From a virus (taxonomy: Duplodnaviria > Heunggongvirae > Uroviricota > Caudoviricetes): 64,000 bases of DNA. The position numbers were made by a program, and so were the translations under genes. Of the stretch, positions 6,053-61,400 are shown piece by piece (position 1 is the first letter of the stretch; every line of letters starts with the position of its first letter). The notes beneath the pieces were generated by a model, which was not told where the DNA came from, ran no database searches, and was given only the letters and a program-made list of their open reading frames with translations. Location: IMG/VR virus record IMGVR_UViG_3300020200_002792. One strand, written 5' to 3'.

Positions 6053-6260
6053 TGAAAATGGAAGAATAATTTACGAAAAATATCAAAGCTGGTATGATGT
6101 ACTCCTGGATGGATATAAAATGAGTCTAATGTTCATCCTTGTAGGAATGATAGGTTTAGCCATAACTCCAATTATGGTAATAATCAATTTTTATAGACCT
6201 AAATGTATAGGCTCTGGGTCTGTAAAACCACAAACGGATCATGAATATCATTGTTTATGA
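6036..6260 (+). CDS. small hydrophobic protein (questionable)
   Basis: Internal Met of ORF 5979..6260. Hydrophobic stretch LMFILVGMIGLAITPIMVIINF. Fills the PurA-like/MetRS gap. Confidence 0.25.
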   Translation, partial: YTKTCNENGRIIYEKYQSWYDVLLDGYKMSLMFILVGMIGLAITPIMVIINFYRPKCIGSGSVKPQTDHEYHCL

Positions 6261-11116: not shown

Positions 11117-11133
11117 ATTTTTCCTTTAATTAA

Positions 11134-33244: not shown

Positions 33245-33701
33245 TGTCTGAAATCAAAATCCCAAAACAATGCTCTATTTCATGCTGATGCACAATGGCA
33301 TCCGTATTAATAAATTCCAAGTTTATATCAGTAATAACTAATTTGTCAAGAGCAAGTAATTCTTTTCCAATAACTTTTATTTTATCAAACCTCTTCACAA
33401 AATAATATCGTAAATCACCGTTTTCTTTTTTTAATGACAAACATCCTTCTAAAGAATCACTTTTATTTCCAATGCCTTCGTAACTACAATTCAAGAAATA
33501 TCGATGCCCGCTGCCAGATTTAATTAAATACAATTTCCAAGGAATACCAACTTGCGAAGCAGAAATGCCTATGCCATTTTCTTTTGTACATAAATCTGAA
33601 AGCAATAAACAAATACGATAAATCTCCTTCAAATCACCTTCTGGACAATTTGCTATTTCCTTTGGTATGTCTGCAACAGGGACTAATTTCAATTTTTGCA
33701 T
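33216..33701 (-). CDS. def: peptide deformylase
   Basis: PDF motifs GIGISASQVG (GxGxAAxQ), EGCLS and QHEIEHCFG (HExxH). Confidence 0.8.
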   Translation of the reverse strand: MQKLKLVPVADIPKEIANCPEGDLKEIYRICLLLSDLCTKENGIGISASQVGIPWKLYLIKSGSGHRYFLNCSYEGIGNKSDSLEGCLSLKKENGDLRYYFVKRFDKIKVIGKELLALDKLVITDINLEFINTDAIVHQHEIEHCFGILISDIGVEYTVWR

Positions 33702-39400: not shown

Positions 39401-40516
39401 CTATTTCAGCCATTTCGGGATATAAGTTGAAGGACTTACCCAAATTAATTCTTCTTCTGCTCTAGATGCAGCAGTATAATTCCATCGCTTCATATCCCAC
39501 AAATCACAGTTTTGCTCATAAACCATTACCTTTGGGCATTGACTACCTTGAAATTTATGACACGTAATAGCATAAGCATAATCAAAAGGATGTGGTGTAT
39601 CTCTGCCAAATTCAAATTGATTCTTTTCTTTGCCCCACTGATTTCCATTAAATTTTACATCACAATAATACAAATCATCTGCAATAAAACTAATTTTTTT
39701 CTTTTTCAAATCAACTTTATCAACTATTCCTTGTAACCCATTAAACAAACCAAAAGGTTTACTATTTCTAAGGCATATAATTCTATCACCTTTTTCTACT
39801 AATTCCTTTTTACCTAAAAAATTTCTGACATTATTGTTTATTTCTACTCTGGTTCTATTAAAACCACAAATAATTTGATCAACTTCTGCTTGCATTTTAT
39901 CAGTGACAGATGAAGAAGCAACAAACTTAACCTTATCACCCCCTTTAAACTTAGTTGGTTTTCCTCCCTTACGGATATGATCTGCAAAAAAAGCAATTTC
40001 TCCAGCATTTCTATGAATAGTTTCCAATTTAAACATAGGATTAGCCATTACATTAATATCCTTGCCAATAGGCTCAAGCTGGCCATGATCACCTATAAAT
40101 ATAATTGGCAAAGAAAAAGAAAGAAGATCACCATAAAGGTCTTCACTCAACATACTAGATTCATCGACAAGAAAACCATCTATAAACAATTCATTTCTCT
40201 GTTTTAAAACAAATTCCAAGGTGCCTTCGTCATCTTTGAATGGTTTATAAATAAGACTATGAATTGTAGAAGAATCTAATCCCTTCTTCCTAAGAACTTG
40301 TGCGGCTTTTCCTGTATAAGCACATATTGCATAAGAAGGAAGAATCTGAGATAAAGTTGCAAGGCATGTGCTTTTGCCACACCCCGCTGCGCCGCCTAAA
40401 CTAATAATTTGTTCATTGCCTTTTTTTAAAGCATTAATTATTCCTGAAACAACTATTTTTTGTTCATGCGTCAATATTATCATGTTTAATGTATTTTTCG
40501 ACAAAAAGATTTTCAT
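39401..40516 (-). CDS. SF1B DNA helicase, Dda/RecD-like
   Basis: Walker A GGAAGCGKST; GDHGQLEPIG (motif III/IV region); YAITCHKFQGSQ (motif VI). Confidence 0.65.
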   Translation of the reverse strand: MKIFLSKNTLNMIILTHEQKIVVSGIINALKKGNEQIISLGGAAGCGKSTCLATLSQILPSYAICAYTGKAAQVLRKKGLDSSTIHSLIYKPFKDDEGTLEFVLKQRNELFIDGFLVDESSMLSEDLYGDLLSFSLPIIFIGDHGQLEPIGKDINVMANPMFKLETIHRNAGEIAFFADHIRKGGKPTKFKGGDKVKFVASSSVTDKMQAEVDQIICGFNRTRVEINNNVRNFLGKKELVEKGDRIICLRNSKPFGLFNGLQGIVDKVDLKKKKISFIADDLYYCDVKFNGNQWGKEKNQFEFGRDTPHPFDYAYAITCHKFQGSQCPKVMVYEQNCDLWDMKRWNYTAASRAEEELIWVSPSTYIPKWLK

Positions 40517-41306
40517 AACGTTCAGTAAATTTAATAACGCCTGACTTTCTTAACAGTGCTATCTCACGATCAGATAACAATGCATGATCTTTTAATTGAT
40601 ATATTAAATTATTTTCTTCACAATATTTACACGCTGCTTCTTTTTTAAGTTTAACAATTTTTGATTTATGAAGTTTAATTGGTTTGATTTCAATTAAATA
40701 TTTTTTGTTTACTAAAAAATCAGGACTATATGTTCTTTCCTTCCCATCCCAATTAACATATTTTATTTTTATCCTTTCAGCACTCTCCCAATTACTGTCG
40801 CTTTCATCCAAATAAATCATATAAGACAATTCTCTTAAACTTCTAAAGAAAATGTTTTTATACCACCCACTCCATCCATTGCCAGCCCCTTGAGGAGTTG
40901 GTTTACCATACATCGGATTATTTGATCCGCTTGAATTCTTACGTTGTTTTTCTTTAAAAGATTCCATTAATTCATTAGCTCTTATTTCTCCATATTTCTT
41001 AACCCACACTTCGTAAACAGTTTTGCCATACATCGCATTGTTTGACCCGCTAGAAAGTGCAGACATTTTTTTCTTATAAGAATCTGTTTGTGTAAAAGAA
41101 ACATCTCTATTCTTTGAAATCTTCTCCTTAGTTGCTTTTGAATGTTTTTTTCCGTAAAATGGATTTTTTTCACCTACCCAATTTAAATTTTTAACAGTAC
41201 AAGAACAACATAGACTATTTTTAGACAAAGCATACGAACAACCATATTTGCTTGCATACTCTAAAACTTTATTACATTGAGGGCAATTTCTTTTATATTG
41301 AACCAT
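40464..41306 (-). CDS. homing-endonuclease-like protein: N-terminal zinc ribbon, three NUMOD3 repeats, C-terminal PD-(D/E)xK nuclease domain
   Basis: CPQCNK...CCSC; NPFYGKKHSKATKEKIS, NAMYGKT, NPMYGKP (NUMOD3); YSPDFLV...YLIEIKP (D...E.K). Confidence 0.5.
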   Translation of the reverse strand: MVQYKRNCPQCNKVLEYASKYGCSYALSKNSLCCSCTVKNLNWVGEKNPFYGKKHSKATKEKISKNRDVSFTQTDSYKKKMSALSSGSNNAMYGKTVYEVWVKKYGEIRANELMESFKEKQRKNSSGSNNPMYGKPTPQGAGNGWSGWYKNIFFRSLRELSYMIYLDESDSNWESAERIKIKYVNWDGKERTYSPDFLVNKKYLIEIKPIKLHKSKIVKLKKEAACKYCEENNLIYQLKDHALLSDREIALLRKSGVIKFTERYENLFVEKYIKHDNIDA

Positions 41307-41334: not shown

Positions 41335-44300
41335 TCAGCAAACAAGTTCATGTTCGCTCCTCAAAACACAAAGCCTAATATCATCTTCTTTACGTTTGGC
41401 TACCTTATGTCTTTCCCATTTAGGAGGACTTTCAAAAGTAAATCTCCTAAAGCCACCTGACGGCCCCTTTAACCTCATCCTTAACAACTTGCCTGGAATT
41501 ATTTCTTCTTTAAATCTTTCAAAGTCTTCTTTCCATACCTGAATCTGTTGCATTTCGCTATTTGCATCCTCTGCTTCGACTAACCAATATGTGTTGTTTT
41601 TCTTAGACATCATGCTCTTGACAGTCAAAATCCTTAATTCAACAGGATTATTTTCCTCTATACATACTTTAAAATCTTCAAATGTCATCCCACCACAATA
41701 GTCAGGACTCTTAGAAAGAGGATGATCCCATAAAAACCCATAATAAGCAAGTTGGGATGCTTCTAAAGATTCATAGTTTTCAAGAATCTTGTCAGCTATT
41801 TCATATTCTTCAGAAACAAAAGGTTTTTCTTCCAAACCAGTCTTAGAAGTTTCCAATCCTCTATAATAATTCTTTAAAACTGTCAAACCTTTCTTCAAAC
41901 TGTTCTTCATACAATAATCATAAATTTCCTTATTGTTATCTGGAAAATGCCATAACTCCTCTGGGACGATTGCCTCAATTTGTTCCTTCAATTCCTTTTG
42001 TCTTCTAATCCACCGCCTTCTTTTTTCATCAATTCTCTTCCTAGACTTCTTAACCCATTCAGCATACTTCAATAAATGGACAACATCTTCGCCAAAAATT
42101 CTAAGACCAATCAAAGGTTTAAGAACTGCCGTATCCGTACCAAATTTATTCAAAAAGTCATCAAAATCATTATAGGGTTGGTTATCTACTACCCTTTGGA
42201 CTACAGCATCTCCAATCCCAACAATATTAGAAATTCCATAATATATTTCTTCATCAACAATAGCTGCTTTAGCTTTAGATTTGCTAATATCGATTGGATT
42301 TACCTTGATATTATGCAATTCAGCTTCCATTTTGTATTCTTTGAGTTTGTCAACCTTATCTTCACAAACAAGACTAGATGTATAAAACTCAATTGGATAA
42401 TGAGCTTTAAAATAAAGAAGCCGCATAGCAATAACACAGTAACCGCAAGAATGACTATTATGGACTAGAATGCCATTAGCAATATAATTATGATTATTTT
42501 TAATACAAATATCATAAGTTTTATCTTTGCCGCATTTCTTAATTGATTTTACTTGCGTCCAAAAAATATTACTGTTAACTATTTTCAATAATTCAACATG
42601 CTTAAAAGTTTTAGCAATTATTTCAATAGTTTTTCTTAAAAAAGACTTCTTGTTTTTATCTTTCAAAAGAATTCTATGAGTCAGTCCACATTTATCTAAG
42701 CAATATCTGCCATACGACTTTCTAATTTCAAGGAGATAAGGCATTACAAGATTATATGGCAGCATATCACGTTCGTTACAGAAGATACTATATTTATAGA
42801 GAAAACTTTGATCACATTTTTTAGAACACATATATTTGCCTATACTTTTAGCAAATCTTTCCCTCCAATTATACCCTCCAACTTTAACTATATAACCTAT
42901 TTTTCTCATTCCCCGATAATTAAAAAATTTCTTATTTAACACAGAAACAAAACCTATTCTGAGCAAAAGTTCTTGCACTTGCTCTGCTAATTTCAAAGAA
43001 GATGTGGCATAGTAAGTGTTGCTTCTATCTACACATCCATCCCCTTCCCACATTCGTCCAAGCAATAACATGATTTGCTTAGAAGATAATTGAAAAACCC
43101 AATCAGGTAAAAATTTTTGAGGAGCTTTTTTCCAACACAAATCATTTTTCCTGGCCCATTGCAACAAATTAGTGGGAACATATTTTTTATAACTTCCAGA
43201 ATGGCCTGAATTAATACAGATTACCCACTTATCTTTGTAGTATTGCTTAGTAATATGAGACTTTCCAAATTTCTTAGCTGCCTTTACAAAATCATCAACA
43301 TAAAATTCATCTTGATTAAAAAAATACAAAGAACTAGGATGACAGGTATTACCTTCTGTAATTAAACCAGCTAAAACTATCAGTTCATGACTTTCAACTT
43401 TATGAGTGGCTACACAATCTCTTTTGGAAGGTAAAGCTACCCAATCACCAAGCTTCAAATCACTTAAAGGAATCCATCCTATATCAGTTAAAAATTTATG
43501 TTTTTCTGTACATTTAATAGCATGGTGAGATTTAGTGATTAATTCAAAAATTGATTTTTCACCATTATCAAAAACATCTTCTATAACAGATATTTCAAAT
43601 TTGCCATTCTTATCTAAAGAACCAGTCTTCATTCCCTTTTTAGCTTCACGGACCTTAAATGGTATTCCAAATTCATCGTATAAAACAGAATCGCCATGCA
43701 AGCACTTGTTGAAGCTGTACCCACTAAATGCCTCTATTTGAGTCCAAAATTCATTCATCTTTTCCAAACTATATCCCAATCGTTTCATGCCATTCTCAAT
43801 GAAACGATTTTTATAAGTCTGGAATAAATCAAGCCTCTTTTTGGATATAGCTTTTCTGACAATCTCACAATCTTTTAATGGCACATCACCTATTTGATTC
43901 AATATTCGCATGATTTGTTCTTGATAGATCATACAACCATAAGTTTCTCCCAAAATAGGTTTCAAAAGAGGATGAAGTCCATAAGCTTCACCCTTTTTTC
44001 TTTTTATATAAACTTCTGATTGTGCAATGGCCCCTGGACGATAAACGCTAAGATACGCCATCAAATCATTGAACCCATCAACACCGCCTTTTTTAACCAA
44101 TTGTCTCATGCCTTCGCTATCAAACTGAAATATGCCTCTTAAATCTGCTTTATTTGCCATTTCAATCGATTTAGGAGCATTCAAATAAGAAGTATCTGAC
44201 CAATCTTTCTTTCCAGGCTTTGCACAAATACTAGTTAAACCATGTCTATCTTTTACTAATTTTTTAGCTATAGCTATTTGTTTTAAATTAGACAAAGACA

Positions 44301-45048
44301 ACAAATCAAACTTAACCAAACCAACAGGCCCTAAATCCTGACCATGTAAACCTTCCACCCAAGCTGTACAAGGCAAATCATCTTTGTCTTTAACCAATGG
44401 GACAAAATTATTGATAGGTTTGCTGGATATAATTAATCCTCCAGCATGCTTACCCATACTATTGTTTCTATGCAAAAGCTTTTTAGCCGCTGTTGCTACT
44501 TCTGGATGATCCTCACAATACTTCTTCATTTCTGGAAATAACTCAACAGCTTTATCCCAGGTTAATGTTTTGCCTTCATCGTCCTTTAAACCCAATTTTT
44601 TAGTTACAGCCGTTACTTCATCTTTATCACAACTATACACTCTGGCCATATTTTGAAGTGCTGATTTAATGCCGAAAGTGTTATAGCTACCAATATTGGC
44701 TACAAATTCTTGGCCATAAAATTTTGGTGCCCAGATGTTCTTCAGATAATCTCGAACTTCTGGAAGAAAGTCGCAGTCCGAATCAGGCATGTCACCGTAA
44801 ACGTAGGTAGGCTCTTTGTCTATCTCTAAATCGTCTACTATGCCTAAAAGATATGGGATTAAGAGGTTTTTTTGATTATAAGGATATCTGATTTGCTTTT
44901 TGTGTAAATCTAGAAAATAATCATGCTTGTTTTGAGCATCTATTTCTTTTAATTCCAGGGCTAATCTCTTAGTATACTTCTCTTCTTTAAGCCCTTTACT
45001 TTCTAACCTAGCATTTAGAATTATAATCAATTCATCTTTAGCTTCCAT
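41335..45048 (-). CDS. dnaE: DNA polymerase III alpha (DnaE), C-terminal part; contains an intein. DnaE-homologous start is Met87 (44788..44790); aa 1-86 are a degenerate duplicate of an N-half segment
   Basis: MGKHAGGLIISS (AGKHAGGVVIAP), GLVKFDLLSLSNL (GLVKFDFLGLRTL), GIFQFDSEGMRQL...YRPGA (GVFQLESRGMKDL...FRPGP), FSGYSFNK[intein]SHSCGYCVIAMRLLYFKAHYPIEF ([32 protein letters not shown]). MPDSDCDF matches MPDFDVDF. Confidence 0.85.
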   Translation of the reverse strand: MEAKDELIIILNARLESKGLKEEKYTKRLALELKEIDAQNKHDYFLDLHKKQIRYPYNQKNLLIPYLLGIVDDLEIDKEPTYVYGDMPDSDCDFLPEVRDYLKNIWAPKFYGQEFVANIGSYNTFGIKSALQNMARVYSCDKDEVTAVTKKLGLKDDEGKTLTWDKAVELFPEMKKYCEDHPEVATAAKKLLHRNNSMGKHAGGLIISSKPINNFVPLVKDKDDLPCTAWVEGLHGQDLGPVGLVKFDLLSLSNLKQIAIAKKLVKDRHGLTSICAKPGKKDWSDTSYLNAPKSIEMANKADLRGIFQFDSEGMRQLVKKGGVDGFNDLMAYLSVYRPGAIAQSEVYIKRKKGEAYGLHPLLKPILGETYGCMIYQEQIMRILNQIGDVPLKDCEIVRKAISKKRLDLFQTYKNRFIENGMKRLGYSLEKMNEFWTQIEAFSGYSFNKCLHGDSVLYDEFGIPFKVREAKKGMKTGSLDKNGKFEISVIEDVFDNGEKSIFELITKSHHAIKCTEKHKFLTDIGWIPLSDLKLGDWVALPSKRDCVATHKVESHELIVLAGLITEGNTCHPSSLYFFNQDEFYVDDFVKAAKKFGKSHITKQYYKDKWVICINSGHSGSYKKYVPTNLLQWARKNDLCWKKAPQKFLPDWVFQLSSKQIMLLLGRMWEGDGCVDRSNTYYATSSLKLAEQVQELLLRIGFVSVLNKKFFNYRGMRKIGYIVKVGGYNWRERFAKSIGKYMCSKKCDQSFLYKYSIFCNERDMLPYNLVMPYLLEIRKSYGRYCLDKCGLTHRILLKDKNKKSFLRKTIEIIAKTFKHVELLKIVNSNIFWTQVKSIKKCGKDKTYDICIKNNHNYIANGILVHNSHSCGYCVIAMRLLYFKAHYPIEFYTSSLVCEDKVDKLKEYKMEAELHNIKVNPIDISKSKAKAAIVDEEIYYGISNIVGIGDAVVQRVVDNQPYNDFDDFLNKFGTDTAVLKPLIGLRIFGEDVVHLLKYAEWVKKSRKRIDEKRRRWIRRQKELKEQIEAIVPEELWHFPDNNKEIYDYCMKNSLKKGLTVLKNYYRGLETSKTGLEEKPFVSEEYEIADKILENYESLEASQLAYYGFLWDHPLSKSPDYCGGMTFEDFKVCIEENNPVELRILTVKSMMSKKNNTYWLVEAEDANSEMQQIQVWKEDFERFKEEIIPGKLLRMRLKGPSGGFRRFTFESPPKWERHKVAKRKEDDIRLCVLRSEHELVC
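42457..43704 (-). mobile_element. LAGLIDADG intein in DnaE at the GYGFNK/SHS site (416 aa)
   Basis: Starts CLHGDSVLYD, ends ILVHN followed by S. LAGLIDADG blocks ELIVLAGLITEGNT and LLLGRMWEGDGCV. Junction codons checked against the DNA. Confidence 0.8.
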
Positions 45049-45075: not shown

Positions 45076-45279
45076 TCAGTCAATACTAAATAGACCCCCA
45101 ATAGAATTTGGATAAGCACTTAAATCATCCCCCTGATACTCGCTAACTCTCACAACAGACAACCATTTATTGCTTTTCATATATTTATTCGCTTCTTCCT
45201 CATCAATAAAAACCTTAGTTAAAAACCAAGGAGAAAAAAGCCCACCATAATCATCTTCATAAATTAAGTAGACTTTCAT
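45076..45279 (-). CDS. hypothetical small protein
   Basis: 67 aa, overlaps the upstream gene stop. Confidence 0.3.
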   Translation of the reverse strand: MKVYLIYEDDYGGLFSPWFLTKVFIDEEEANKYMKSNKWLSVVRVSEYQGDDLSAYPNSIGGLFSID

Positions 45280-47345
45280 TTGAATCCCATTGACCTTTCT
45301 ATATCCTGGTCAGAAGAAATGTATTCCTTCATTGAAGACAAAGTAAAAATAGCATCTTCGTATTCATCACCAAGGATTATAACGGCAACAAACAATTCTT
45401 TCAAATGTGCAATACTAAATCCATTCGTATCTTCAATCCATTTAGAAAGAGGAACTTTTAATTCTTTTACTTTATCACCCATCAAATATTCAAAATACAA
45501 TTTTCTACTTTCTTCATTTGGATGACCTATCTTGAACCTCTTATCAAACCTGCTTGGCCTATTAATGACTCTTGGACCTAATTCTTCTGGATAATTAGTA
45601 GTTGCCAAGAATACGCACTTGTGGACACATTCAACACCATCCAATATATTCAAAACACCAGATTCATCACCATAATTATGCATTATCGCATCTAAATCTT
45701 CCATCAAAACTACAACAGGTGTTTCTGGCTGAATTGTTCTGAATATTCTCATGCCTTCTATGAAAATATGAGGATGACAAAATTTAACTACTATGCCGCC
45801 TCTTTCAACCACATCTTTCATAATAAGTTGAATAGAACTCGATTTACCACTATTATGATGAACAATATAATCAGAAGTTAAATATAAATGATCACCCGAA
45901 ATTGTAAACCCATAAAACTTCCCTTTGCCAAGAGATTCAATTTTTCTAATGCCTGTTCTTAACGGGTCTTTATTAGGCATTCCAACTAGTGCTTTTTTTC
46001 TTGCAAGTTTTACAGGAATTCTAGAAATATCACCAAATATGTTAAGCCGCCAATAATCTCCTTCAAAGTCTATTTCTTTAATTCCTTTTTTTACTTTTTT
46101 AATTGTCACACCAAAACCAAGACTTCTAGCCAATTCAACTATCTGCCAAGCCAACCTTTCTCTTTTCTGAATAATTTCAAAATAATCTTTATAACCTTTT
46201 TTCTTAAATTTAGCACTTTTCCTCCAGGTAGCAACACAATAACCTCCATCAGTATCAACTAACCCTGCCAATAAACCTAGCCTTTGCTGCACTGAAGAAT
46301 ACATATAATTATCTGGGATGTGCTTATCCTCCAATACATTTAAATTTCTTAATTCATTTAAAACATAATTGCCGCCTTTTGATCCATCGCCAACTATATT
46401 CAAAGCCCAACAAATAGAATCTGTTTTACGCCTTTCTGTTAAAGATAGTCCAAAACAAAATGCATATTTTCTCAAATATTCTTTTATTTCCTGGTCAGCA
46501 GAATTAACCTCAGTTTTACCTTCAGAACCATCACCCAGCCAAACTCCTAAAAAATAAGGTTCCAATGGCAATTCTTGTTTTTTTTCAAAATTCACTCCAA
46601 TTCTGTACAACTTAAACGACCATTGAGAGCATTTGGTCAAATTCATATAATCATTTAATTTAATATTCATTACAGGAGGAAATCTCAATTCAACGCTACT
46701 AGTTCTTCTTAAACTTAAAACATGATTGCCATTTACTACAAAAGGTTCTCCCTTATTAGGATATACTCTGTACATTTCATCGATACCATGCCTTAATTCT
46801 AATACCCTACGTGGCTTAGAATCAGGCCCCATAAGTAAATCACCAACTTCTACGTCTTCTACTTTCTTAGTTTTCCCATCAAACATTCTAATCAATGTGC
46901 CTTTTCCATGACACCCAGCAGGGCCGTATAATATCACGCCCCTTTTGTATGCTAAACCAAATTCTTTAAATACCGCTTCCTTATCCCAGAATTTTTTAAT
47001 CTCATCAACAACCTTTTCTGAATTAGTTTGAGGAAATCTAATAAGACCTTCAGTTTTTACTGGAACTTTTTCAAAATATATACCAACTCCAGGAGCTTGA
47101 AGAATGTCATAAACTCCAGGAATAAGCTTATCTATTGTGTGACTAGCAGGTATGAAAGTTCTTTTGTCAGAAGTAGTCCATTGAACTAAATTGCCAAGCT
47201 TAACTTGTTGTTCTTCTTTTTCTTCTGACATATCACTACCACGACAAGAAGTAGCATATGCTTTATTGTAAGGTTTATATGCTGGTTCTTTTTCTGCCGC
47301 ACTTTTTAATAACTCAATTAACTCACTATCTTCTTCTCTTGACAT
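45276..47345 (-). CDS. classic-clade AAA ATPase with an intein in the Walker A loop
   Basis: Extein reads VILYGPAG[intein]SGKSSSIQ (Walker A), then VVVLMEDLD (Walker B) and second region of homology ATTNYPEELGPRVINRPSRFDKRF. Confidence 0.7.
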   Translation of the reverse strand: MSREEDSELIELLKSAAEKEPAYKPYNKAYATSCRGSDMSEEKEEQQVKLGNLVQWTTSDKRTFIPASHTIDKLIPGVYDILQAPGVGIYFEKVPVKTEGLIRFPQTNSEKVVDEIKKFWDKEAVFKEFGLAYKRGVILYGPAGCHGKGTLIRMFDGKTKKVEDVEVGDLLMGPDSKPRRVLELRHGIDEMYRVYPNKGEPFVVNGNHVLSLRRTSSVELRFPPVMNIKLNDYMNLTKCSQWSFKLYRIGVNFEKKQELPLEPYFLGVWLGDGSEGKTEVNSADQEIKEYLRKYAFCFGLSLTERRKTDSICWALNIVGDGSKGGNYVLNELRNLNVLEDKHIPDNYMYSSVQQRLGLLAGLVDTDGGYCVATWRKSAKFKKKGYKDYFEIIQKRERLAWQIVELARSLGFGVTIKKVKKGIKEIDFEGDYWRLNIFGDISRIPVKLARKKALVGMPNKDPLRTGIRKIESLGKGKFYGFTISGDHLYLTSDYIVHHNSGKSSSIQLIMKDVVERGGIVVKFCHPHIFIEGMRIFRTIQPETPVVVLMEDLDAIMHNYGDESGVLNILDGVECVHKCVFLATTNYPEELGPRVINRPSRFDKRFKIGHPNEESRKLYFEYLMGDKVKELKVPLSKWIEDTNGFSIAHLKELFVAVIILGDEYEDAIFTLSSMKEYISSDQDIERSMGFK
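45852..46913 (-). mobile_element. LAGLIDADG intein in the P-loop of the AAA ATPase (354 aa; coordinates from codon arithmetic)
   Basis: Starts CHGKGTLIRMFDG, ends YIVHHN followed by SGKS. LAGLIDADG blocks YFLGVWLGDGSEG and LGLLAGLVDTDGGY. Confidence 0.7.
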
Positions 47346-47442
47346 TAAAAAACTCCATCCGATTATAGATGGAGTATAAGAAATAAAAATAATTATTACA
47401 AGGCCAAAAAATAACCCCAGCTTTTTATGGCTAGGGTTATTG

Positions 47443-48036
47443 CTAAGGGAAAGTCAAATAACTTGAAACTGCTTTACAAAACTCAACCAAATTATTCTCA
47501 GGCCATTCAAATTTGGCAAGTTGTGCTATTAAAGCTACAAACTGAATATTGCCTTTTATATAACCTTTACCACTATCTATCCTATCTAAACTTGCCCTGT
47601 CGGGAGTGCGTGGTAATTTTGAACCAATAGTAGGCAAATTTTTAAGTTGCCATCCAGTATACGGGCAAACACCTTTTTGTTTTTCCCACTGTTCTTTAAG
47701 ATCAATTAATGTAACGCCACATTCTTTATTATTTCTTCTTATAATGTTTCGATAATGCCAACGAAAAGGCGAATATTCATCTGGTGTCCGTACTTTTAAA
47801 TTTTCAGGTCTACCACCACCTAAATGTTTATAATTATCCTTTCCTGCACATCTAAGAGAACAATAAATTTTCCTGCCTAGCTTTTCATTTCTTGATAGCT
47901 CACCAACTTCTCTTAAAAATGTTTTACCACAAATAAAACACTGAACTTCTTTTTTCATAAAAACCTCCATTATAACATAGTAAGTTATAATGGAGGTTGT
48001 CGAAATTTTATTGGAGGCGTTGGGGATTGAACCCAA
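47443..48036 (-). CDS. HNH_3-type homing endonuclease, paralog of 32654..33244; true start probably an internal Met near 47955
   Basis: CFICGK...CSLRCAG...GVCPYTG...ASLDRIDSGKGYIKGNIQFV...N. The N-terminal 25 codons of the ORF overlap the tmRNA 3' end. Confidence 0.55.
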   Translation of the reverse strand: MGSIPNASNKISTTSIITYYVIMEVFMKKEVQCFICGKTFLREVGELSRNEKLGRKIYCSLRCAGKDNYKHLGGGRPENLKVRTPDEYSPFRWHYRNIIRRNNKECGVTLIDLKEQWEKQKGVCPYTGWQLKNLPTIGSKLPRTPDRASLDRIDSGKGYIKGNIQFVALIAQLAKFEWPENNLVEFCKAVSSYLTFP

Positions 48037-48362
48037 GTGAACGTGTAATGATGATTAAGCCTCTACATGCTTATCTCCTTGTTCATTACAGTTTTAGAAC
48101 TACAAAGAGCAAAAGTCCACAAACTGTTACGACATATTTTCTCATCTAAAAGCAAGTCGTCCGCTAATAGACCAGCTAGATTTTACATCAGGCTTTTGGA
48201 CGCATCCAGCATTAGCTTCCTGAGCCTGTTGGCCGACTTAAGCAGCCAAAGAGTAAGAAACTTCCTCAATTAAGAGTAATCGCATTTTATACTGGCCTTG
48301 CGATTAACCAGTGCATGCCACATTAACCACGCAACTTACCGTTTCGAAACCAATTCGCCCCC
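48012..48362 (-). ncRNA. ssrA: tmRNA (ssrA), ~351 nt; ends approximate
   Basis: RC reads 5' GGGGGCGAAUUGGUUUCGAAACGG...GUGGCAUGCACUGG (cf. E. coli GGGGCUGAUUCUGGAUUCGACGGG...GUGCAUGCCGAGG) and ends ...CUUGGGUUCAAUCCCCAACGCCUCCA (T-arm plus 7-bp acceptor pairing with the 5' end, discriminator A). Internal tag frame ...GAG GAA GUU UCU UAC UCU UUG GCU GCU UAA = EEVSYSLAA-stop (E. coli ends YALAA). Confidence 0.65.
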
Positions 48363-48435
48363 GATTTGTCAAAGACCTACTAATCTATTTATTCTATAGT
48401 AAAAAGTTTTAAAATCAAGCCCCCTATATAGAAAT

Positions 48436-49221
48436 ATGATAAAATTCTCTGAATATTTGGACAACCAAGGCAAAATGGAAAAAACAAAAATCTCTGTGGA
48501 TGGAGATACAGGCCCAAGTCCAACAAAAGCACCAGAACCAGCCGCAAAAAAGGGCAAAAACTGGAAATGCGAAACCACTTTGGCTGAAAAACCAAAGGAT
48601 TACGCAACCAGTACACAACCAGACAAACAAATGGTTATGAAAGACAAGGACGCCAAGCCTGGTTTGGGCACTGAAGGAGATAAAAAACTAATTTATGAAC
48701 CAGAAACTCCTACAAAATCAACCGCTGATGGCATGGTAAATATCAAACCTACTTGGCCAAAAGCTACTGAGAAAACTACAGCTACAGCAGAAAGTTTTAT
48801 CAATGCCACCAAAGATATGTCTACAGAAGAGTTTGTAGCTTATTTGTCTGAAACTAAAGAAAAAGAAGAACACCCATTAAAGACAATCATTAATGCCGTT
48901 CGCTTAATGAAAGACAATGATAAGCTTACTGAAACCTTTGTAAGAGAAACACGCAGACAAGGCTCTTTGGATATTCTAGTAAATGAAATGTTCAAATTAG
49001 AAGAATCATACAAAGGTTTAGCTACATTACTTTCAGATATCAGCCATCAGAATAGACTAAACGATGCTATTAAAGAAAGCACTGAAGCACCTGCATCCGA
49101 AACAGAAGGCGAAGATAAGAAAGCAGTCGGTAAAAGGAAAGCCAAATCCATAAAAGGACAACCAATGGATATGGGAAACGATGTTGTAAGTTCTAAAGCT
49201 TCTATGTCGAACAAGAAGTAG
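48436..49221 (+). CDS. low-complexity K/E/T/P-rich protein with T4-CTS-like N-terminus (candidate internal/ejected protein)
   Basis: Starts MIKFSEYLDNQGKME. 261 aa, largely predicted disordered. Confidence 0.4.
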   Translation: MIKFSEYLDNQGKMEKTKISVDGDTGPSPTKAPEPAAKKGKNWKCETTLAEKPKDYATSTQPDKQMVMKDKDAKPGLGTEGDKKLIYEPETPTKSTADGMVNIKPTWPKATEKTTATAESFINATKDMSTEEFVAYLSETKEKEEHPLKTIINAVRLMKDNDKLTETFVRETRRQGSLDILVNEMFKLEESYKGLATLLSDISHQNRLNDAIKESTEAPASETEGEDKKAVGKRKAKSIKGQPMDMGNDVVSSKASMSNKK

Positions 49222-49236
49222 TTTTTCTACTTTCAA

Positions 49237-49381: not shown

Positions 49382-50041
49382 TTACCTCTCATACTTGTAA
49401 TTATCCACAAAATCTTTCAAGTGCTTCTCGTAGTCTGTAAGTTCTCCAAGAGCAAACCGTGGTGCTAATAAATCGCAATAATTTGCCAGTGTTTTGCAAG
49501 CGTGTTCATAACTGTTATAAATACCTGGATATTCTGATCTTTCATTAATATGCTTATTTCGGGCATTATCCAACCAATCATTTATGGGAACAAGCATTTT
49601 TTGCCAGCTTCCATTCCTGTGCATTGACCAGCCTGGAGATTCGACGTTCCAATGGAAGTAATCTTCACCTTCGTTACAAAAAAGATCGAAACCATCAGCG
49701 AGTGCTTGTAGTAATTCGGCATCCGTGAGATACTTGCGAGGGTGCTTCTTGTCCCAGGCTTCTTGACGACGATCATCCCATATCTTCTCATACTTCTTGT
49801 ACAAATTTTTCTCATCATCCCAATAACCATAGATAGTCCACTGCCCTGGCCACAAATGACGTGCTGATTCTTTAATCTCAACGTGCCATATCTCTTTCAA
49901 CCACTGCAAGTATGCTGGGTCTTTCCAACGTGATTCATCTTTGCCCCAAGGGTTGTTGTTGTTTTCCATGCTATTATTACAGTTAAATTGGGTCCAAGTT
50001 CTCAAATTCCAAACTAATACTTTTACCGCCTCTAGCTTCAC
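49382..50041 (-). CDS. W-rich hypothetical protein
   Basis: 219 aa with many W/K/D residues. Overlaps the dnaE N-half stop by 59 nt. Confidence 0.3.
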   Translation of the reverse strand: MKLEAVKVLVWNLRTWTQFNCNNSMENNNNPWGKDESRWKDPAYLQWLKEIWHVEIKESARHLWPGQWTIYGYWDDEKNLYKKYEKIWDDRRQEAWDKKHPRKYLTDAELLQALADGFDLFCNEGEDYFHWNVESPGWSMHRNGSWQKMLVPINDWLDNARNKHINERSEYPGIYNSYEHACKTLANYCDLLAPRFALGELTDYEKHLKDFVDNYKYER

Positions 50042-52547
50042 TTAAAAATCTGCTAAATAACAAACCATGTTCAACAGGGTCTACATCAGTAATACCAAGT
50101 ACATAACAAATTAATGAGCCTAAGTTAGAGTTGTGAGCAATAAATGAAGATGTTAAATAATTACTTTCATTCTCTACTTCAATGTCATAAACTTTGCCGC
50201 CAGAAGAAACTTTTGTTATTTCTCTCACTTGAACTAAATAACCATTGTCTTTAATTCTATAGCGATAAGATTTTTGATAATTATTTTCGGACAATCCTTT
50301 TATATGAGGAATATTAATGCTATATTCAACGTTTCTAGTATCACTTCTTTTGTCATATCTATTATAAAGATTAATAGAAGCAGGAATATCTATAGACAAA
50401 CAAATATGTCTTACCTCATGAGCCATTCTTACTGAACTTGTAGTAAATTTTATTTTATTTTTGTCTAATCCACCATCAGTAAGAAAAAATCCTTTTAAAA
50501 ATGCCAGTTTTAATTTCTTAGGCAAATTAAACACAACATCTGGAACGTGTTTGGTCTGCGCAGTTAGTTTATAATCACAAAACAATTCTTTCATCAATTT
50601 TTTAAGAAGAAGGTTAGTCGAATGAAACTGGACAAGTTTTTTAGTTTTTGAATAATATCTTCTCATGCAAAGCCCGAATTCATCTTCGAACATATGTCTA
50701 CAGAACTCAAAAACATCCGTGTTTTCGCTATGAGTACATAAAGAAACTCTATTAGGAGCATTTGTTATAAAAAATCCATTGCCACAAAACATGCCAATAA
50801 ACGTAGCAAAATCTTCATTCCATTGAATAAATCTGTTTATTTTATATTTCTTATAATTATTCGTATAACTTATCTTATTTTCTGTTATATCTAAATTTTC
50901 TCCATATTTAGCCAAATCAATAATTTCTGGCACTCCTTCTTTTATATCAAATCTAGGAATAAACAACCAATCTCCAACTTCAATTTGATCGACTGGAATC
51001 CAGTTCATATCTCCAGTAGGTTCCAGAGTTAATTTTACTTTTTTCTTATTCTCCTCTGAATAATGATCGAATTTATGATCTATTCTTTTCTTCTCACACA
51101 ATATTTTATGGTCAGAAGTAAAAGATTCTCCTTGATTGAATCCATAATATGTCTTTATATTAATCAACTCTTCATCACAAGGATATTCGAATAAATTCAA
51201 TATTTTCCTTTCCTTGCCGCTTGCGCTGTAAACCAAATCACCAAGTTTGGCTTCTCCTAATTTTTTCACTTTCCCATTAGGCATGAAAAGCAAATTATTA
51301 TAATGGCCACAACCTCTGCCCGGCCCATAAGCATCACTTCCGTCACCCCATCCTAGTATCTCAGGACAAACTCTTATAGCCTCATCCATAATCTGTTTTT
51401 GAATCAAAAAATAAGAAGAAAATTCCTTATGGCATATCAAATTATATTCTTCTTTTAATCTATTTAAATATTCTCTAGTTGTTGGCAAGCCTCTTTCTTT
51501 AAATCCTTGTATCATCAAATCTTGCAATTTATCGTCATCATTATCAAGTTTAGGCAACTTCATTGATGTATCAAGCTGGACATTACCTGCTTTTCTGGCT
51601 ATTTCAACAGTATTCATCTTAGCTTGTTTGAAAATGTCATAATCTATCTCTTGATAATCTTTAGCCCATTTTTCATTTAATTCTTCTTCAGTCTTCATCC
51701 ATAAATTACTGTCTTGCAGTTCAAAGAAATCTTTATAATTATCATCCGTCATTTTTTTCTGAATTTCTTTTATGGTATTTTTTGTTTGCACCATCAACAT
51801 TAATCTTTGAAATTGGCTATCGCCTGGTGAAAGATAATGGCAGTCATTAGTTAAAATTATTTTCAATCCATACTTGTCAGCAGCTTTAATAATGAATAAG
51901 TCATAAGGCTTCTGTTTTACAAAATCCAAAAGCATTATTTCCAGATAAAAATACTCCTTACCAAACATAGAAATGTACTTTTCTATCATTTGGTAGCCAG
52001 CTTCTTCTCCACCATTCTCAAATGCCTGTCCTATTTCGGAAGCATAACAACAGGAAGTGAATATAATGCCTTCTTTGTACTTTAAAAGCTGTTCATGATT
52101 GACTCTAGGTTTATAATAAAAACCTTTGTTCCAAGCTAAAGAAGAAAGCGTAACTAAATTGCTATATCCTGTTAAATTATAAGCCAAAGCTAATAAGTGA
52201 AAACCCCTTCTTCGCATCAACTTAAGTTCTTTGGGATTTAATGAATCTAGATATTTCTGCAATTCATTTTCAGAAGAGTATTCGATTTGCAAAGGATTAA
52301 CATAAAACTCAATTCCGAAGATGGGTTTTAAAGATTTATTTTTATACGAATCATCTTTCTTATTGGATGCTTTACAGTATTTAATTTGATTTGGAGGAGC
52401 CGCTAACATGCCATGATCAGTTACACATAAATAATCTCCATGTCCTTTCCAATATGCTGCATATTCTGAAATTTCCCCAAAACCATCTAGTAAAGAGTAT
52501 GAACTATGAACATGAAGCGGCTCATATCCAACTATTTCATTTTTCAT
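49983..52547 (-). CDS. dnaE: DNA polymerase III alpha (DnaE), N-terminal part (PHP domain onward); contains an intein and ends 11 aa after the position equivalent to E. coli ...NPERVS
   Basis: PLHVHSSYSLLDG and CVTDHGML (PHP motifs), KPIFGIEFYV, ILTNDCHYLSPGDSQFQRL (VATNDVRFIDSSDFDAHEIRV), SYFLIQKQIMDEA, YGPGRG[intein]SNLGSLICYVLGITDVDPVEHGLLFSRFL ([35 protein letters not shown]). Confidence 0.85.
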   Translation of the reverse strand: MKNEIVGYEPLHVHSSYSLLDGFGEISEYAAYWKGHGDYLCVTDHGMLAAPPNQIKYCKASNKKDDSYKNKSLKPIFGIEFYVNPLQIEYSSENELQKYLDSLNPKELKLMRRRGFHLLALAYNLTGYSNLVTLSSLAWNKGFYYKPRVNHEQLLKYKEGIIFTSCCYASEIGQAFENGGEEAGYQMIEKYISMFGKEYFYLEIMLLDFVKQKPYDLFIIKAADKYGLKIILTNDCHYLSPGDSQFQRLMLMVQTKNTIKEIQKKMTDDNYKDFFELQDSNLWMKTEEELNEKWAKDYQEIDYDIFKQAKMNTVEIARKAGNVQLDTSMKLPKLDNDDDKLQDLMIQGFKERGLPTTREYLNRLKEEYNLICHKEFSSYFLIQKQIMDEAIRVCPEILGWGDGSDAYGPGRGCGHYNNLLFMPNGKVKKLGEAKLGDLVYSASGKERKILNLFEYPCDEELINIKTYYGFNQGESFTSDHKILCEKKRIDHKFDHYSEENKKKVKLTLEPTGDMNWIPVDQIEVGDWLFIPRFDIKEGVPEIIDLAKYGENLDITENKISYTNNYKKYKINRFIQWNEDFATFIGMFCGNGFFITNAPNRVSLCTHSENTDVFEFCRHMFEDEFGLCMRRYYSKTKKLVQFHSTNLLLKKLMKELFCDYKLTAQTKHVPDVVFNLPKKLKLAFLKGFFLTDGGLDKNKIKFTTSSVRMAHEVRHICLSIDIPASINLYNRYDKRSDTRNVEYSINIPHIKGLSENNYQKSYRYRIKDNGYLVQVREITKVSSGGKVYDIEVENESNYLTSSFIAHNSNLGSLICYVLGITDVDPVEHGLLFSRFLSEARGGKSISLEFENLDPI
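50130..51311 (-). mobile_element. LAGLIDADG intein in DnaE at the GPGRG/S site (394 aa)
   Basis: Starts CGHYNNLLFMPNG, ends FIAHN followed by SNLGS. LAGLIDADG blocks FIGMFCGNGFFI and LAFLKGFFLTDGGLD. Junction codons checked against the DNA. Confidence 0.8.
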
Positions 52548-53527
52548 TTCTTACTTATAAACCTTATGCCCTTTTTAGTCAACCATTCCTCAAAATCTGC
52601 CAAACAATATTTTCCGCTTTTACTGTTATTTTCAAAAGCTTCTAAAGGTCGTAAATTTTCTAAACAATTAATGAGCGATAAATCATATAATCCATAATCT
52701 ACAAAAGCTTTTATAGGCCAAATGTGATCAATATGCCATTTATCATTCTTAATTTTCTCATAATTTGGGTGATTCAAAATGTGTTCTTGCAATTGTTTAT
52801 AATCATATCCCAACAACGTCGCTGTCCTTTTATTCTTGACTCTTCCAGTGGCATTCAAAGACATTCTAACTAATTTATAACACCTTTGACGGAAAATAAG
52901 CTCATTTGCTAATGCCTTTCTGTCACTTCGCCATTCATAATGATTTTTTCCTGATCTGCTTTTAATAGAACATTGTAAACACATACCACTTTTTCTAAAG
53001 TTACCCCAAGTAACAACAGATTTCTCTCCACACTTACAAATATAATCTAATTTTTTATTAGCTTTCTCATATCGGCTCAGAAGAATACAACCTTTTTCTA
53101 CAAATTTTTGGGCAACATAATCATGACTTAAAGTTTGTTTTTCAGAAGATTTTTTATTACCACATTTTTTGCATCTATTGCCTGATTTAAACCTCCAAAA
53201 AGTAATTTTAGATTCTCTCCCACATTTACAAACATATCTTAAAGGAATTCTAGCATTTACATATTCTGTTTCTAACAATACACATTTATTTTCCTTAAAA
53301 TATTGCCTAACATAATCAATACTTAATCTAAATCTTTCAGACTGCTTCCTAGCATGACATTTAGAACAAAAAATTGATTTTCTAAAATTAATAAAACTTT
53401 TAACAAAAACATTACCACAAACACAAACATATTCTAGTGGCAACTTTATATCTTGGCATTCTTTAGACAAAAGAGTACATTGTTTTGATTCAAAAAAGTT
53501 TTTAACATCTTCATAAGTATATTTCAT
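52544..53527 (-). CDS. zinc-ribbon-repeat HNH endonuclease
   Basis: Four tandem ~45-aa modules (Y.C.CG......F...G..C..C). Then HIDHIWP...N...N HNH core. Confidence 0.55.
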   Translation of the reverse strand: MKYTYEDVKNFFESKQCTLLSKECQDIKLPLEYVCVCGNVFVKSFINFRKSIFCSKCHARKQSERFRLSIDYVRQYFKENKCVLLETEYVNARIPLRYVCKCGRESKITFWRFKSGNRCKKCGNKKSSEKQTLSHDYVAQKFVEKGCILLSRYEKANKKLDYICKCGEKSVVTWGNFRKSGMCLQCSIKSRSGKNHYEWRSDRKALANELIFRQRCYKLVRMSLNATGRVKNKRTATLLGYDYKQLQEHILNHPNYEKIKNDKWHIDHIWPIKAFVDYGLYDLSLINCLENLRPLEAFENNSKSGKYCLADFEEWLTKKGIRFISKK

Positions 53528-58465: not shown

Positions 58466-61400
58466 CTAATCCTTATTGCTTTGAGTACCAGCAAATAGAC
58501 TGCCAACATAATTTAATACATCCGTGGCAGACTGCTGATTATATTTATACTGATCTATTAATCTCTTCTTGACCAAATCAATCTTTTCTTGCAAATCAGG
58601 TTGAACAGTACCAGCAGACTCCACATCTAATGAAGACAATTTAACATGTTCCTTGACATCATCAAATAGTTTAGCTTTCAAAGCTTTTTTCAACTGCTGG
58701 TCACTATCCCATCTAAACTTCTCGCCTTTATTAGCCAAATCACCGATAAAAGCAGCTATAGAAGTTCTAAAAGCGTCAATGCCTCTTTCTGGAACGTCAA
58801 TCTTTTCTTCAATTGACCTCATTAACTTCTCGCTAGGTGGTTCTTCCCTTTGAGTGAATGGGTTCTTGATTTTAGATTTCCTAATATATGCCATCACATT
58901 ATCGATGTAATTAGCACAAATTCTTTCAAGAGCCTTGGCATCACCGCTTAAAGCTTCTCTTACCTCATCTTTTAAAATTTCATTCAATTCTTGTATTGTT
59001 AGCTCCACACAGGTATGGTATCTAGCTAATTCTTCTTTATCTTTGATCAAAGCGTGATTATCCAATCCTTCTCTAATTTCATTCATAACCATAAAAGGAT
59101 TAATATAATCATAATTTGCACTCAAACAATTGCTAATCTTATCTTGTGTATACCTAGCACTGATACCAAATTCCATTCCCTCTTCTGGATATTTGTCCTT
59201 ATATTCCTTGACTGTTTCTTCATTAAACCCAGGTAATATTTCGCCATTATACAACTTAGCTTTCTGTACTGGTGTTAATTTACCTTCTTTATCTGGAGAT
59301 AACCTTGTTAGAATTGTCCACAATGCAGCGACTTCAATAGTATGAGGAGCAATATGTTGTGGAACTTTGCCTTCGCCATAATCTTGCTCCAAAACTTTAA
59401 TTTCATCAGCCAATCTTGTCAAGTATGGAACGTCTATCTTAACAGTACGATCTTTCAAAGCTTCCATGAAAGGATTGCCGAGAAGTTTCTTGTACTCTGG
59501 TTGATTTGAATGGCCCAAAAGCATCTGATCCACAGAAACTTGACTAAACTTCTTAGGTTTAATTTGTTTCTCTTGGCTTGCTCCTAAAAGATCATATAAG
59601 AACTCTTGTGCCAATTTCAGCATTTCAATGAATTCAACTAATCCTCTATTACCAACACATAATTCGCCATTAAAACCAAACGAATTATGGCTAACAAAAC
59701 CGTTGGCCCAATAAGCATGTGTTTCAGGAACGCTCAAATCATAAACATTAATTTTACCTACTTTAGATATGCTTTGGATTGGCAACCAAATAAATTCATC
59801 AGTTAATATTTGTTTTAATGTTTGATAATCAACATCATCATGTGATACTTCTATACTTTCCAAGAAATGTGCCAAAGTTTCATAAGCAACATTAGGTTTT
59901 CTTATTGCATCATGCAAACTACCATTATATTTGCTAATCAAACTAGCCTTATTAGTAGCTTTTTTAAACAAATTAAGCATCAAAGGCTTAATATTAGGCA
60001 AAACATCTACATTAGGAGATGCTTTAGTATCAGTCAAATATCCAGCAGTAAATCTTTTTTCCAAAGAAGGAATAAATTTCAATAATTTGTTGACATTTTT
60101 TCCATAACAACGAACTCGCCAACATCCTTCGTCTTGATATATACCGGATATTACACCAAATGCAAGCAAAACAGATTGAACTTGATCACATAAAACTTCA
60201 GAACAAGAAACAAAAACAGATGTATTAGAACCATTGTTGTTTCTTAAATTTCCATCTGTCTCAAACAATCCCCGCAAAAATTCTGCAACTATAGGAGCAG
60301 GAGAAGCTAAGATACAATCTGGAATGGTCTTAAAAGCAGCATGAGAACAAACCCCTAAAACTTCTTTAAACCAAGATACAAGTTTATTACAACAAACTCT
60401 AGCCACTCCGCTATGATCTTCACGTTGATCGTTTCTTAATTCAATATTGAAACATTCTTGGCATAAATCAATAAAGTCTTGCCTTCTATCATCTTCTTTT
60501 TGAGTATACCCAAATTCATAATTATGAGAATTTTCATTAACATAAATATGGCCATCTCCAGTCCACAAACCTAATAAATATGCTAATTTCTTAGTAACTT
60601 TAGTTGGGAAAATTAAATTATGCTTTTCATTTCCATACATTTCTGGATTAAATGGAGGCAGTTCTACCTCTTTACCAGCCTCCATTTTTAAATATGGACT
60701 TGCTCCTCTAATTAAAGCAATATAATCTCCACTATTTAAATGTTTAACATGTTTCCAAACAACTTGACCATTTTCTAATGTCAAAAACCTATGTTGTTTC
60801 GTACAAGTAATTGAATATCCCAACTTAGTTTTAACTTTATAAGCAGTTTTCTTCCCGCCATTATAAACACTATTAATAGAATTTAATTTATCCTTATCAA
60901 AACTTTGCACCATCAAATCAGAATAAGCAAAACAATCTGCTTTTAATTCATTAGGAACAAACTTTTTAATTTTTCCAATGCCATTGTTTGTAAAAATTAA
61001 AGTATCTCCAGCAACACATCTCGCATCAGCGTCACTGCCAAAATGGGCAAGATTTCTAAAATTAACATCACCAGTTAACTCTGTAGCATCTTGGTTTTTT
61101 TCATCTTTAGGTTGGAAAGTACCAATACCAACTCGATCTGATTCGGAGTGAACCTTTCTCATTACAACGATATGTTCTTTTAATACTTTTTCCCAATCCC
61201 CATCATACAAATTCATTAGCTCATCCATGAATATCTTACATCTTGGGCACAATTCTCCATCACATTTCAACCTATAAACCTTATTTCTTTGTTCCTTAGG
61301 CAAACTATCAAGGTAAACCTCATTTAACTCTGCAAACATCTTAGTTCTGATATTTTGCGGAACTAACTTAATTGGGTCTTCATTCATAGGACAACAATCT

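Follow-up and report, generated by a model that had tools for sequence, protein, structure and literature searches.

Transfer-messenger RNA (tmRNA) genes have been reported from huge phages (Al-Shayeb et al. 2020, PMC7162821) and from RefSeq viruses in the 2025 tmRNA database (PMC11915505), and one survey found them in 2.3% of phage genomes (PMC9004378). The described phage genes are complete and lie in large lytic-type genomes together with other translation factors; the tmRNA of phage Melnitz is two-piece (PMC9004378). The roles proposed for them are the upkeep of the hijacked translation machinery and the tagging of host proteins for amino-acid recycling (PMC7162821, PMC9004378). The T-loop of tmRNA genes is also used by group I introns with LAGLIDADG endonuclease genes, and the intron form makes up about 0.9% of the unique sequences in the tmRNA database (PMC11915505). 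A small free-standing nuclease beside a conserved gene is known from the F-CphI/psbA intron system of cyanophage S-PM2, described as 'collaborative homing' (PMC6083498). We analysed a stretch of 64,000 nucleotides (IMG/VR record IMGVR_UViG_3300020200_002792, hereafter the window) that carries on its minus strand a one-piece tmRNA gene (48012..48362) and, 53 nt downstream of it, an open reading frame (ORF) of 171 amino acids for an HNH-fold nuclease (47443..47958). Taken as a whole, it is highly probable in our judgement that the locus combines a functional, vertically inherited huge-phage tmRNA with an adjacent selfish homing endonuclease.

The window tmRNA gene is a genuine, structurally intact and canonical one-piece tmRNA gene, and apparently a functional one, judging from the elements that it has kept. 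The Rfam tmRNA model RF00023 matches 48009..48362 on the minus strand over its full length (1-374) with 82.5 bits (gathering score 47, E 1.8e-30), and RF00023 is the only Rfam family at threshold within the window. The gene is 351 nt long, with G1 at 48362 and the discriminator A at 48012, as indicated by RF00023, by the ends that ARAGORN gives with -ps90 and by covariation in 16 syntenic homologues. A sequence-only reading of the window had proposed a phage-encoded tmRNA of ~351 nt with defined termini, a GUGGCAUGC box and a tag frame for (A)EEVSYSLAA. Direct reading and the RF00023 match bear out all of these statements, and the covariance-model search suggested by that reading gave a full-length match; the tRNA-like domain and all four pseudoknots (PK1-PK4) are supported by the homologue alignment.

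The gene of this lineage differs from the phage tmRNAs described so far in its fixed syntenic position beside an AAA ATPase. Using the AAA ATPase of the window as a probe, we collected 19 related IMG/VR loci and scanned 17 of them for tmRNA. A tmRNA (60-151 bits) lies upstream of the ATPase on the same strand in 14 of the 17. The capsid protein of the window shares 77.7% identity with its counterpart in the uncultured-phage assembly LR756511.1 (595,163 bp), where the order is SpoVR, a homologue of the window's orf261 on the opposite strand, the tmRNA (122 bits), the AAA ATPase and, further downstream, an unsplit dnaE. The shared slot is the same throughout: after the divergent orf261 homologue, where one was detected, and upstream of the same ATPase. 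Most likely, as this gene order suggests, the tmRNA has been inherited vertically in a huge-phage lineage with T4-type capsids. The window gene is another case of an established class, since phage tmRNAs, those of huge phages included, have already been described; the earlier statement that phage tmRNAs are rare needs qualifying, as they are known in huge phages and are the rule in this lineage.

We aligned 16 syntenic tmRNAs, including that of the window and two copies spliced in silico, and scored 86 pairs covering the acceptor stem, P2, both stems of each of PK1-PK4, helix 5 (H5) and the T-arm. Standard pairs occupy 86.5% of the cells, versus 37-45% after a shift of the 3' partners by 1-3 columns. 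Compensatory change is seen in 70 of the 86 pairs, and none of the shuffles (0/500) reaches any observed measure. From this alignment it is clear that the tmRNA structure is under selection in the lineage.

All tmRNA stems, with PK1-PK4 and the long P2, are present in the window's own sequence, and the alignment gives the degree of pairing for each. The termini on the minus strand read 5' GGGGGCGAAUUGGUUUCGAAACGG ... GGGUUCAAUCCCCAACGCCUCC-A 3'. The 5' strand of the acceptor stem, GGGGGCG (48356..48362), forms 7 bp with CGCCUCC (48013..48019) and keeps the G3:U pair, which is present in 16/16 aligned tmRNAs; acceptor pairs 5 and 6 covary (GC, CG, UA, AU). The T-arm UUGGG-UUCAAUC-CCCAA (48020..48036) has a 5-bp stem and an unbroken 7-nt loop. 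In the segment comprising the T-arm, the acceptor 3' strand and the discriminator A (48012..48036) the T-stem is 100% paired, with covariation in 4 of its 5 pairs. No group I intron is present in the window (no RF00028 match, and the T-loop UUCAAUC is continuous). The GUGGCAUGC box is the 5' strand of the P2 helix, in which GCAUGC (48313..48318) pairs with GCAUGU (48065..48070); the partner AAGCAUGU stands at RNA positions 293-298. PK1 (48279..48313) consists of the stems CUGG/CCAG and AUCGCA/UGCGAU, and its helices 6 and 7 are paired in 98.8% and 87.5%, with compensatory change in 9 of 11 pairs. The helix 5 hairpin UUGGCUG-CUUAAGU-CGGCCAA (48229..48249) holds the stop codon UAA in its loop (helices 8 and 9, 70-78% paired). 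PK2 (48175..48228), PK3 (48129..48171) and PK4 (48075..48126) contain helices 10-17 (48075..48228), which are 59-88% paired with compensatory changes in nearly all pairs; stem 2 of PK3 is the weakest at 59%.

The tag frame (48238..48267) reads GAG GAA GUU UCU UAC UCU UUG GCU GCU UAA and encodes EEVSYSLAA in nine codons before the stop. It is preceded by UAAUU, with UA at -5/-4 (48271..48272). The alignment with the homologues fixes both frame and context, and the resume codon of the window is therefore GAG. Resume codons in the 16 homologues all begin with G after UA at -5/-4, the frames are 9-11 codons long with one longer exception (L049), and all tags end in (A/S/R)(L/M)AA. Tags of related loci include DEVSYAMAA (L001), DETVYALAA (L044), ANPEFAMAA (L031), ATPYEYALAA (L037) and AENTYALAA (L042). 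The lineage tags resemble those of Bacteroidota type, a likeness on which none of our conclusions depends.

The window RNA shares with the bacterial one-piece tmRNA (SsrA, RF00023, e.g. of E. coli) the full model, a tRNA-Ala-like domain with G3:U and a long P2 with GCAUGC/GCAUGU, as well as the order PK1, tag frame, PK2-PK4, a stop codon in the helix-5 loop and a tag of ~10 residues ending in LAA. It differs from SsrA in being phage-encoded, in having GAG (Glu) rather than GCN as resume codon and YSLAA rather than YALAA, in its unencoded CCA and in having no smpB nearby. The discriminator A (48012) is followed by AUA (CCUCCA-AUA). CCA is encoded in 0/16 of the lineage tmRNA genes, which does not exclude membership in the tmRNA class. 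For many bacterial tRNA genes CCA is added post-transcriptionally. Downstream of the gene a 15-bp hairpin and the U run behind it (47962..47998, minus strand; -22 kcal/mol, z -7.4, with 0/200 shuffles as stable) form the likely terminator.

We infer expression, charging and tagging from these features, and the ribosome-rescue steps follow established knowledge of trans-translation. A tmRNA precursor would be transcribed and end at the strong hairpin just downstream. It would then be trimmed and receive its CCA enzymatically, since CCA is unencoded, and alanyl-tRNA synthetase would charge it with alanine through the G3:U pair. Together with SmpB the tmRNA would enter ribosomes stalled on truncated or non-stop messages in the infected cell. 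The nascent chain would pass to the tmRNA alanine, translation would resume at GAG and append A-EEVSYSLAA, with release at UAA, and the C-terminal LAA degron would direct the product to ClpXP-type proteases. The phage would benefit if ribosome recycling is kept up during infection. The window also encodes MetRS (6251..7783), IF3 (26371..26892), peptide deformylase (33216..33701) and the chaperone DnaJ (20769..21812), and maintaining the hijacked translation would be the simplest reading for a phage with the first three of these. The rescue and tagging role suggested by the sequence-only reading is reasonable by analogy with known tmRNAs. The window tmRNA adds a case to the known pattern of very large phages carrying translation parts, and a tmRNA that is syntenic, conserved and structurally selected across a lineage is a good system for studying what a phage gains from its own ribosome-rescue RNA.

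The tmRNA might instead modify or compete with the trans-translation of the host, either by displacing the host tmRNA, which would alter what becomes of tagged proteins, or by tagging host proteins selectively so that their amino acids are recycled. In E. coli, expression of a mycobacteriophage tmRNA that has no coding region is reported to inhibit the endogenous tmRNA (PMC11915505), another phage has been proposed to tag host proteins selectively (PMC9004378), and the unusual serine at -4 and Glu resume codon of the window tag would fit such a role. We nevertheless regard it as improbable, because the intact tag frame has the LAA ending of ordinary proteolysis tags, the (L/M)AA end is kept in 16/16 lineage tags, and the sequence holds no hint of substrate selectivity. 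Upkeep of translation during infection remains our preferred role for the RNA.

The free-standing nuclease ORF (47443..47958, minus strand) bears out the earlier statement that an HNH-type endonuclease abuts the tmRNA. Its GGAGG ribosome-binding site sits in the 3' arm of the terminator hairpin 47962..47998. A second hairpin with a U run lies directly 3' of its stop codon (47410..47441, minus strand; -17.2 kcal/mol, z -2.2, a weak signal). LR756511.1, L037, L040 and L042 lack the HNH gene at this site and have a gap of less than about 100 nt between tmRNA and ATPase; L031, whose gap of 100 nt can be set against the HNH-bearing window, lacks it too. Comparison of L039, which has the gene, with L037 and L047, which do not, shows both flanks aligned and a clean insertion of ~570 bp inside the tmRNA terminator hairpin. 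The HNH gene and not the tmRNA is the inserted element, because the tmRNA keeps its slot in relatives that mostly have no HNH gene. On these alignments, the HNH gene is a separate mobile element inserted in the tmRNA terminator region. In the larger tmRNA-ATPase gaps of the relatives the ORFs, inspected by eye for other homing endonucleases and compared with the window proteins only, look like unrelated accessory genes.

The sequence-only reading had taken the neighbouring nuclease as a hint that the tmRNA itself is mobile. This would fit a tmRNA and HNH gene acquired together by the phage, recently and as a single mobile cassette: the two are the sole features common to the window and the unrelated contigs L001-L030, and homing endonucleases co-convert flanking DNA. 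The idea does not hold up well against the fixed slot of the tmRNA in LR756511.1 and in 14 of the 17 loci, most of them without the HNH gene. The insertion boundaries of the HNH gene also lie outside the tmRNA, in the terminator, and the gene is found in both orientations relative to the tmRNA (convergent in L012, L044 and L063), which indicates separate insertions. We thus give a jointly acquired cassette little credence, slightly less than a host-directed role, and keep to a resident tmRNA with a separately inserted nuclease gene.

The nuclease ORF has no Pfam or NCBIfam match, and a PDB sequence search returned spurious weak matches to tau protein only. Its PHROG matches are 3322 'endonuclease' (E 7.5e-16), 1035 'endonuclease VII' and 3118 'HNH endonuclease', and the protein has the beta-beta-alpha-metal fold. 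The residues invariant in the family are two N-terminal Cys pairs, C98, S123, D125, R126, Y133 and N137, all kept by the window protein. The family motif is S-L-D125-R126-I-D...Y133...N137, with the Asn invariant and no conserved His. The ORF thus has the HNH fold without the canonical motif; it may be a PacI-like variant, and its nuclease activity is putative. PacI (PDB 3m7k / 3ldy) has a similar fold with an identity of only 15%, and is a restriction enzyme rather than a phage homing endonuclease. We also considered the DHHRN family of F-CphI, in which a DHDH motif is flanked by CX2-4C and CX2C (PMC6083498); it was rejected, as the ORF is without the central DHDH motif.

Relatives of the nuclease are found beside tmRNA genes across two samples. 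The first consists of the 19 best relatives in IMG/VR: 14 of them adjoin an Rfam-scored tmRNA, two (L014, L016) sit in antisense within a group I intron, which interrupts the T-loop of an oppositely oriented tmRNA, two (L004, L018) adjoin sub-threshold matches to permuted tmRNA models, and one (L017) has no tmRNA beside it. The exon junctions of L014 and L016 were read directly as ...GGGUU | intron | CGAAUCCC...CUCCA. The second sample consists of nine further protein clusters from general metagenome assemblies, seven of which are beside a tmRNA, one convergent on a 603-kb contig and one in the intron form; the two exceptions are located near tRNA genes. In the combined samples the nuclease abuts the tmRNA 3' end in about 23 of 28. 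It is always the 3' end of the tmRNA that faces the HNH gene, at a distance of 5 to about 330 nt, with the gene in either orientation. The proteins flanking the window locus (dnaE, AAA, orf261, SpoVR) were not found in the IMG/VR loci L001-L030. Among the ATPase-probed loci, which are unbiased for the HNH gene, 4/16 have it, and both intron-bearing tmRNAs there are accompanied by it.

The pattern in the family is as would be expected of a homing endonuclease with its target in the 3' part of tmRNA genes. In co-infecting phages, the nuclease would probably cut tmRNA alleles that have no endonuclease, close to their 3' (T-arm) end, and its gene would then spread by recombinational repair. We conclude from the linkage that the nuclease family is probably a homing endonuclease specific to tmRNA genes. 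We are more hesitant about the broader proposition that the whole family, which has at least 258 members, no Pfam hit, annotation as 'hypothetical protein' at most and an HNH fold without the usual catalytic His, is a dedicated phage tmRNA homing endonuclease; we put it forward tentatively, with doubt slightly outweighing belief. That the nuclease also cuts the host ssrA, leaving the phage copy as the tmRNA source of the cell, is unlikely. The linkage of this nuclease family to tmRNA genes has not been described as far as the searched literature shows, and it is the part most worth following up.

Three arrangements occur in the family. The nuclease gene stands beside an intron-less tmRNA in the window and about 18 other loci, beside a tmRNA with an endonuclease-free intron in L001, L044, L048 and L064, and antisense inside the intron in L014 and L016, which makes six loci with T-loop introns. 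The F-CphI system is alike in that a small free-standing nuclease stands beside a conserved gene, which in some genomes has an endonuclease-free group I intron and in others has the nuclease inside the intron. It differs in that the neighbour here is a tmRNA gene instead of psbA, the motif is D-R-I-D with invariant Tyr and Asn instead of DHDH, and the window tmRNA has no intron. Without leaving the family, these arrangements may document each step of the path proposed to lead from a free-standing endonuclease to a mobile intron. The T-loop introns with LAGLIDADG genes (PMC11915505) share with this family the gene and the region used; the nuclease here, in contrast, is of HNH fold, mostly free-standing, and antisense to the tmRNA where intronic. 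The Pfam-based screen of PMC11915505 would not detect it, because the nuclease is invisible to Pfam. If the nuclease indeed homes to tmRNA genes, free-standing homing endonucleases would gain a new class of target, and the family would provide intermediates, in a natural series, for the 'collaborative homing' model of intron mobility, as well as small nucleases that are sequence-specific and have an unusual active site.

Some further observations were made on these loci. The intron-bearing tmRNAs of L014 (2920-4153, minus strand) and L016 (about 2916-4300, minus strand) give RF00028 matches of 83-97 bits, the Rfam tmRNA model is silent on both, and the HNH homologue lies between the intron core and the 3' exon. 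In L067 (3256-3401) and L068 (3227-3372) a RAGATH-9 RNA (RF03146, 122 bits) and a tRNA are near one of the two HNH homologues without a neighbouring tmRNA. The GOLLD RNA (RF02032, 316-330 bits) has no match in the window; five viral contigs (L005 4412-4825, L006 4897-5311, L007 2429-2836, L008 4175-4582 and L011 1657-2066) carry it on the strand opposite the tmRNA-HNH pair, at a distance of 1-2 kb.

The ARAGORN search suggested by the sequence-only reading gave a divided answer. With defaults, ARAGORN reports zero tRNA or tmRNA genes across the 64-kb window; at a threshold of 90% it returns 48362..48012 exactly, flagged as a pseudogene. The tag reported at 90%, ARPV, is located inside PK1 and is hence a mis-call. 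The defaults also overlook 7 of the 14 Rfam-detected tmRNAs of related loci (L036, L040, L043, L044, L045, L048 and L049), and these seven and the window gene have Rfam scores of 60-151 bits. The silence of ARAGORN is therefore a limit of the tool and not evidence against the gene, as the lower threshold recovers the same ends and many clear relatives are overlooked. ARAGORN was the tool of the surveys of phage tmRNAs, and at defaults it misses the window copy. Since it overlooks this gene and about half of its relatives, the published counts of phage tmRNAs are probably too low.

One could read the default miss, the pseudogene label and the four-residue tag as signs of a decaying relic or pseudogene, all the more as the window gene, at 82.5 bits, scores lower than 11 of 15 other tmRNAs from the lineage (60-151 bits). 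The gene itself does not look decayed: all helices pair in the window sequence and covary across the lineage, no damage is seen in the G3:U pair, the T-loop, the context of the resume codon or the stop codon of the H5 loop, and the ARAGORN tag is clearly an error. Four JGI samples and one Logan run contain an identical HNH protein with unchanged neighbours, and the recurrence of the identical locus in these five datasets, which is at least five metagenome samples, indicates that the locus is real rather than an assembly artefact. A relic seems very improbable to us, and we continue to treat the gene as intact. Neither megablast with 47000-49500 nor blastn with the tmRNA matched anything in the phage collection, and exact-pattern scans for the tmRNA 5' and 3' ends across IMG/VR gave nothing. 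A degenerate P2-plus-tag pattern was found in IMG/VR in the L001 contig only and nowhere in the metagenome collection.

The window is of phage origin, as its genes for a gp23-type major capsid protein and a prohead protease show; it also encodes a PrkA/DUF444/SpoVR trio. That the locus is bacterial, either a host ssrA gene or the remnant of a prophage attachment site, is barely credible even though ssrA often serves for integration, fragments of it are common in prophages (PMC11915505, PMC9004378) and a serine-recombinase-like ORF is present at 16825..18861, because the gene is full length and not a 3' fragment, the capsid and protease genes accompany it, the best matches are huge-phage genomes and IMG/VR contigs, and the phage collection gives no DNA-level match.

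Several observations weigh against a functional, inherited tmRNA with a tmRNA-specific homing endonuclease at its side. No SmpB gene is present in the 64-kb window, so that the tmRNA may rely on host SmpB; SmpB genes are found in Lak phages and in the largest huge phages, LR756501-4. Maturation of the tmRNA needs a CCA-adding enzyme, the CCA being unencoded. The sigma-70-like match upstream of the tmRNA (48391..48418) is no better than chance, and we claim no promoter. The serine at -4 (YSLAA) occurs in the window tag only, among the 16 tags. As for the nuclease, the canonical catalytic His is absent, with D125-R126 where Endo VII-type enzymes have D-H. Near-duplicates among the linked loci (L007/L008, L010/L015) mean that the linkage counts overstate the number of independent cases. 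T-loop and T-stem sequences show no consistent difference between HNH-bearing and HNH-free tmRNA genes, so that their comparison points to no cleavage site and to no basis of self-immunity.

The neighbouring genes form a block around the tmRNA. Upstream and divergent lies orf261 (48436..49221, plus strand, 261 aa), which has no family match and occupies the same position in 12 related loci among those inspected. The conserved downstream neighbour is a classical AAA ATPase with a single module (45276..47345, minus strand), whose nearest matches are Cdc48/p97, FtsH and the proteasome-activating nucleotidases (PAN). An intein of Hint/LAGLIDADG type interrupts its P-loop/Walker A (GPAG|C...HN|SGKS). 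That the ATPase is functionally linked to the tagged proteins would be pure speculation. Upstream of the ATPase gene is a hairpin (47352..47375) with a GGAG(G) ribosome-binding site in its 3' arm; a U run and the ATG come next. The HNH gene of the window has this arrangement too (47962..47998), as do the ATPase gene of L037 and the HNH genes of L039 and L048, and it may couple termination with translation control.

The dnaE gene is split, and its halves, about 5 kb apart, flank the tmRNA locus. The N-terminal half (49983..52547, minus strand) has the PHP domain and the start of the NTPase domain, the C-terminal half (41335..45048, minus strand) has the remaining NTPase domain, the fingers and HhH, and each contains a LAGLIDADG intein. 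The position of the tmRNA inside the dnaE split had been noticed in the sequence-only reading, and the order is conserved in a sub-clade: L033 shares dnaE-N, orf261, tmRNA, AAA, dnaE-C, and dnaE-C directly follows the ATPase in eleven further loci. In L031, L037, L040 and L042 a single unsplit dnaE without inteins lies downstream of the same orf261-tmRNA-AAA block. Because the unsplit relatives keep this block, the split is a rearrangement of the sub-clade around an older block. An insertion of the tmRNA as the cause of the split was considered and rejected on the conserved gene order of the sub-clade. The first ~85 residues of the C-terminal half are without counterpart in the unsplit relatives, and a segment of them resembles the region just before the split in the N-terminal half.

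Outside this block, the G+C content rises locally to 0.435 at 10001..12000, versus about 0.33 elsewhere, and the rise coincides with the major capsid gene (9641..11116) and an adjoining ORF. The PrkA ORF region (58466..61876) carries an intein. A stretch of ~20 kb is unusually rich in selfish elements, with the AAA, PrkA and two dnaE inteins and at least three free-standing endonuclease genes (40464..41306, 47443..47958 and 52544..53527). The last of these, a second endonuclease gene of 327 aa with a PHROG HNH-related match, overlaps the start of dnaE-N by 4 nt, and a copy with 56% identity is found in the same position in L047 (6669-7442).

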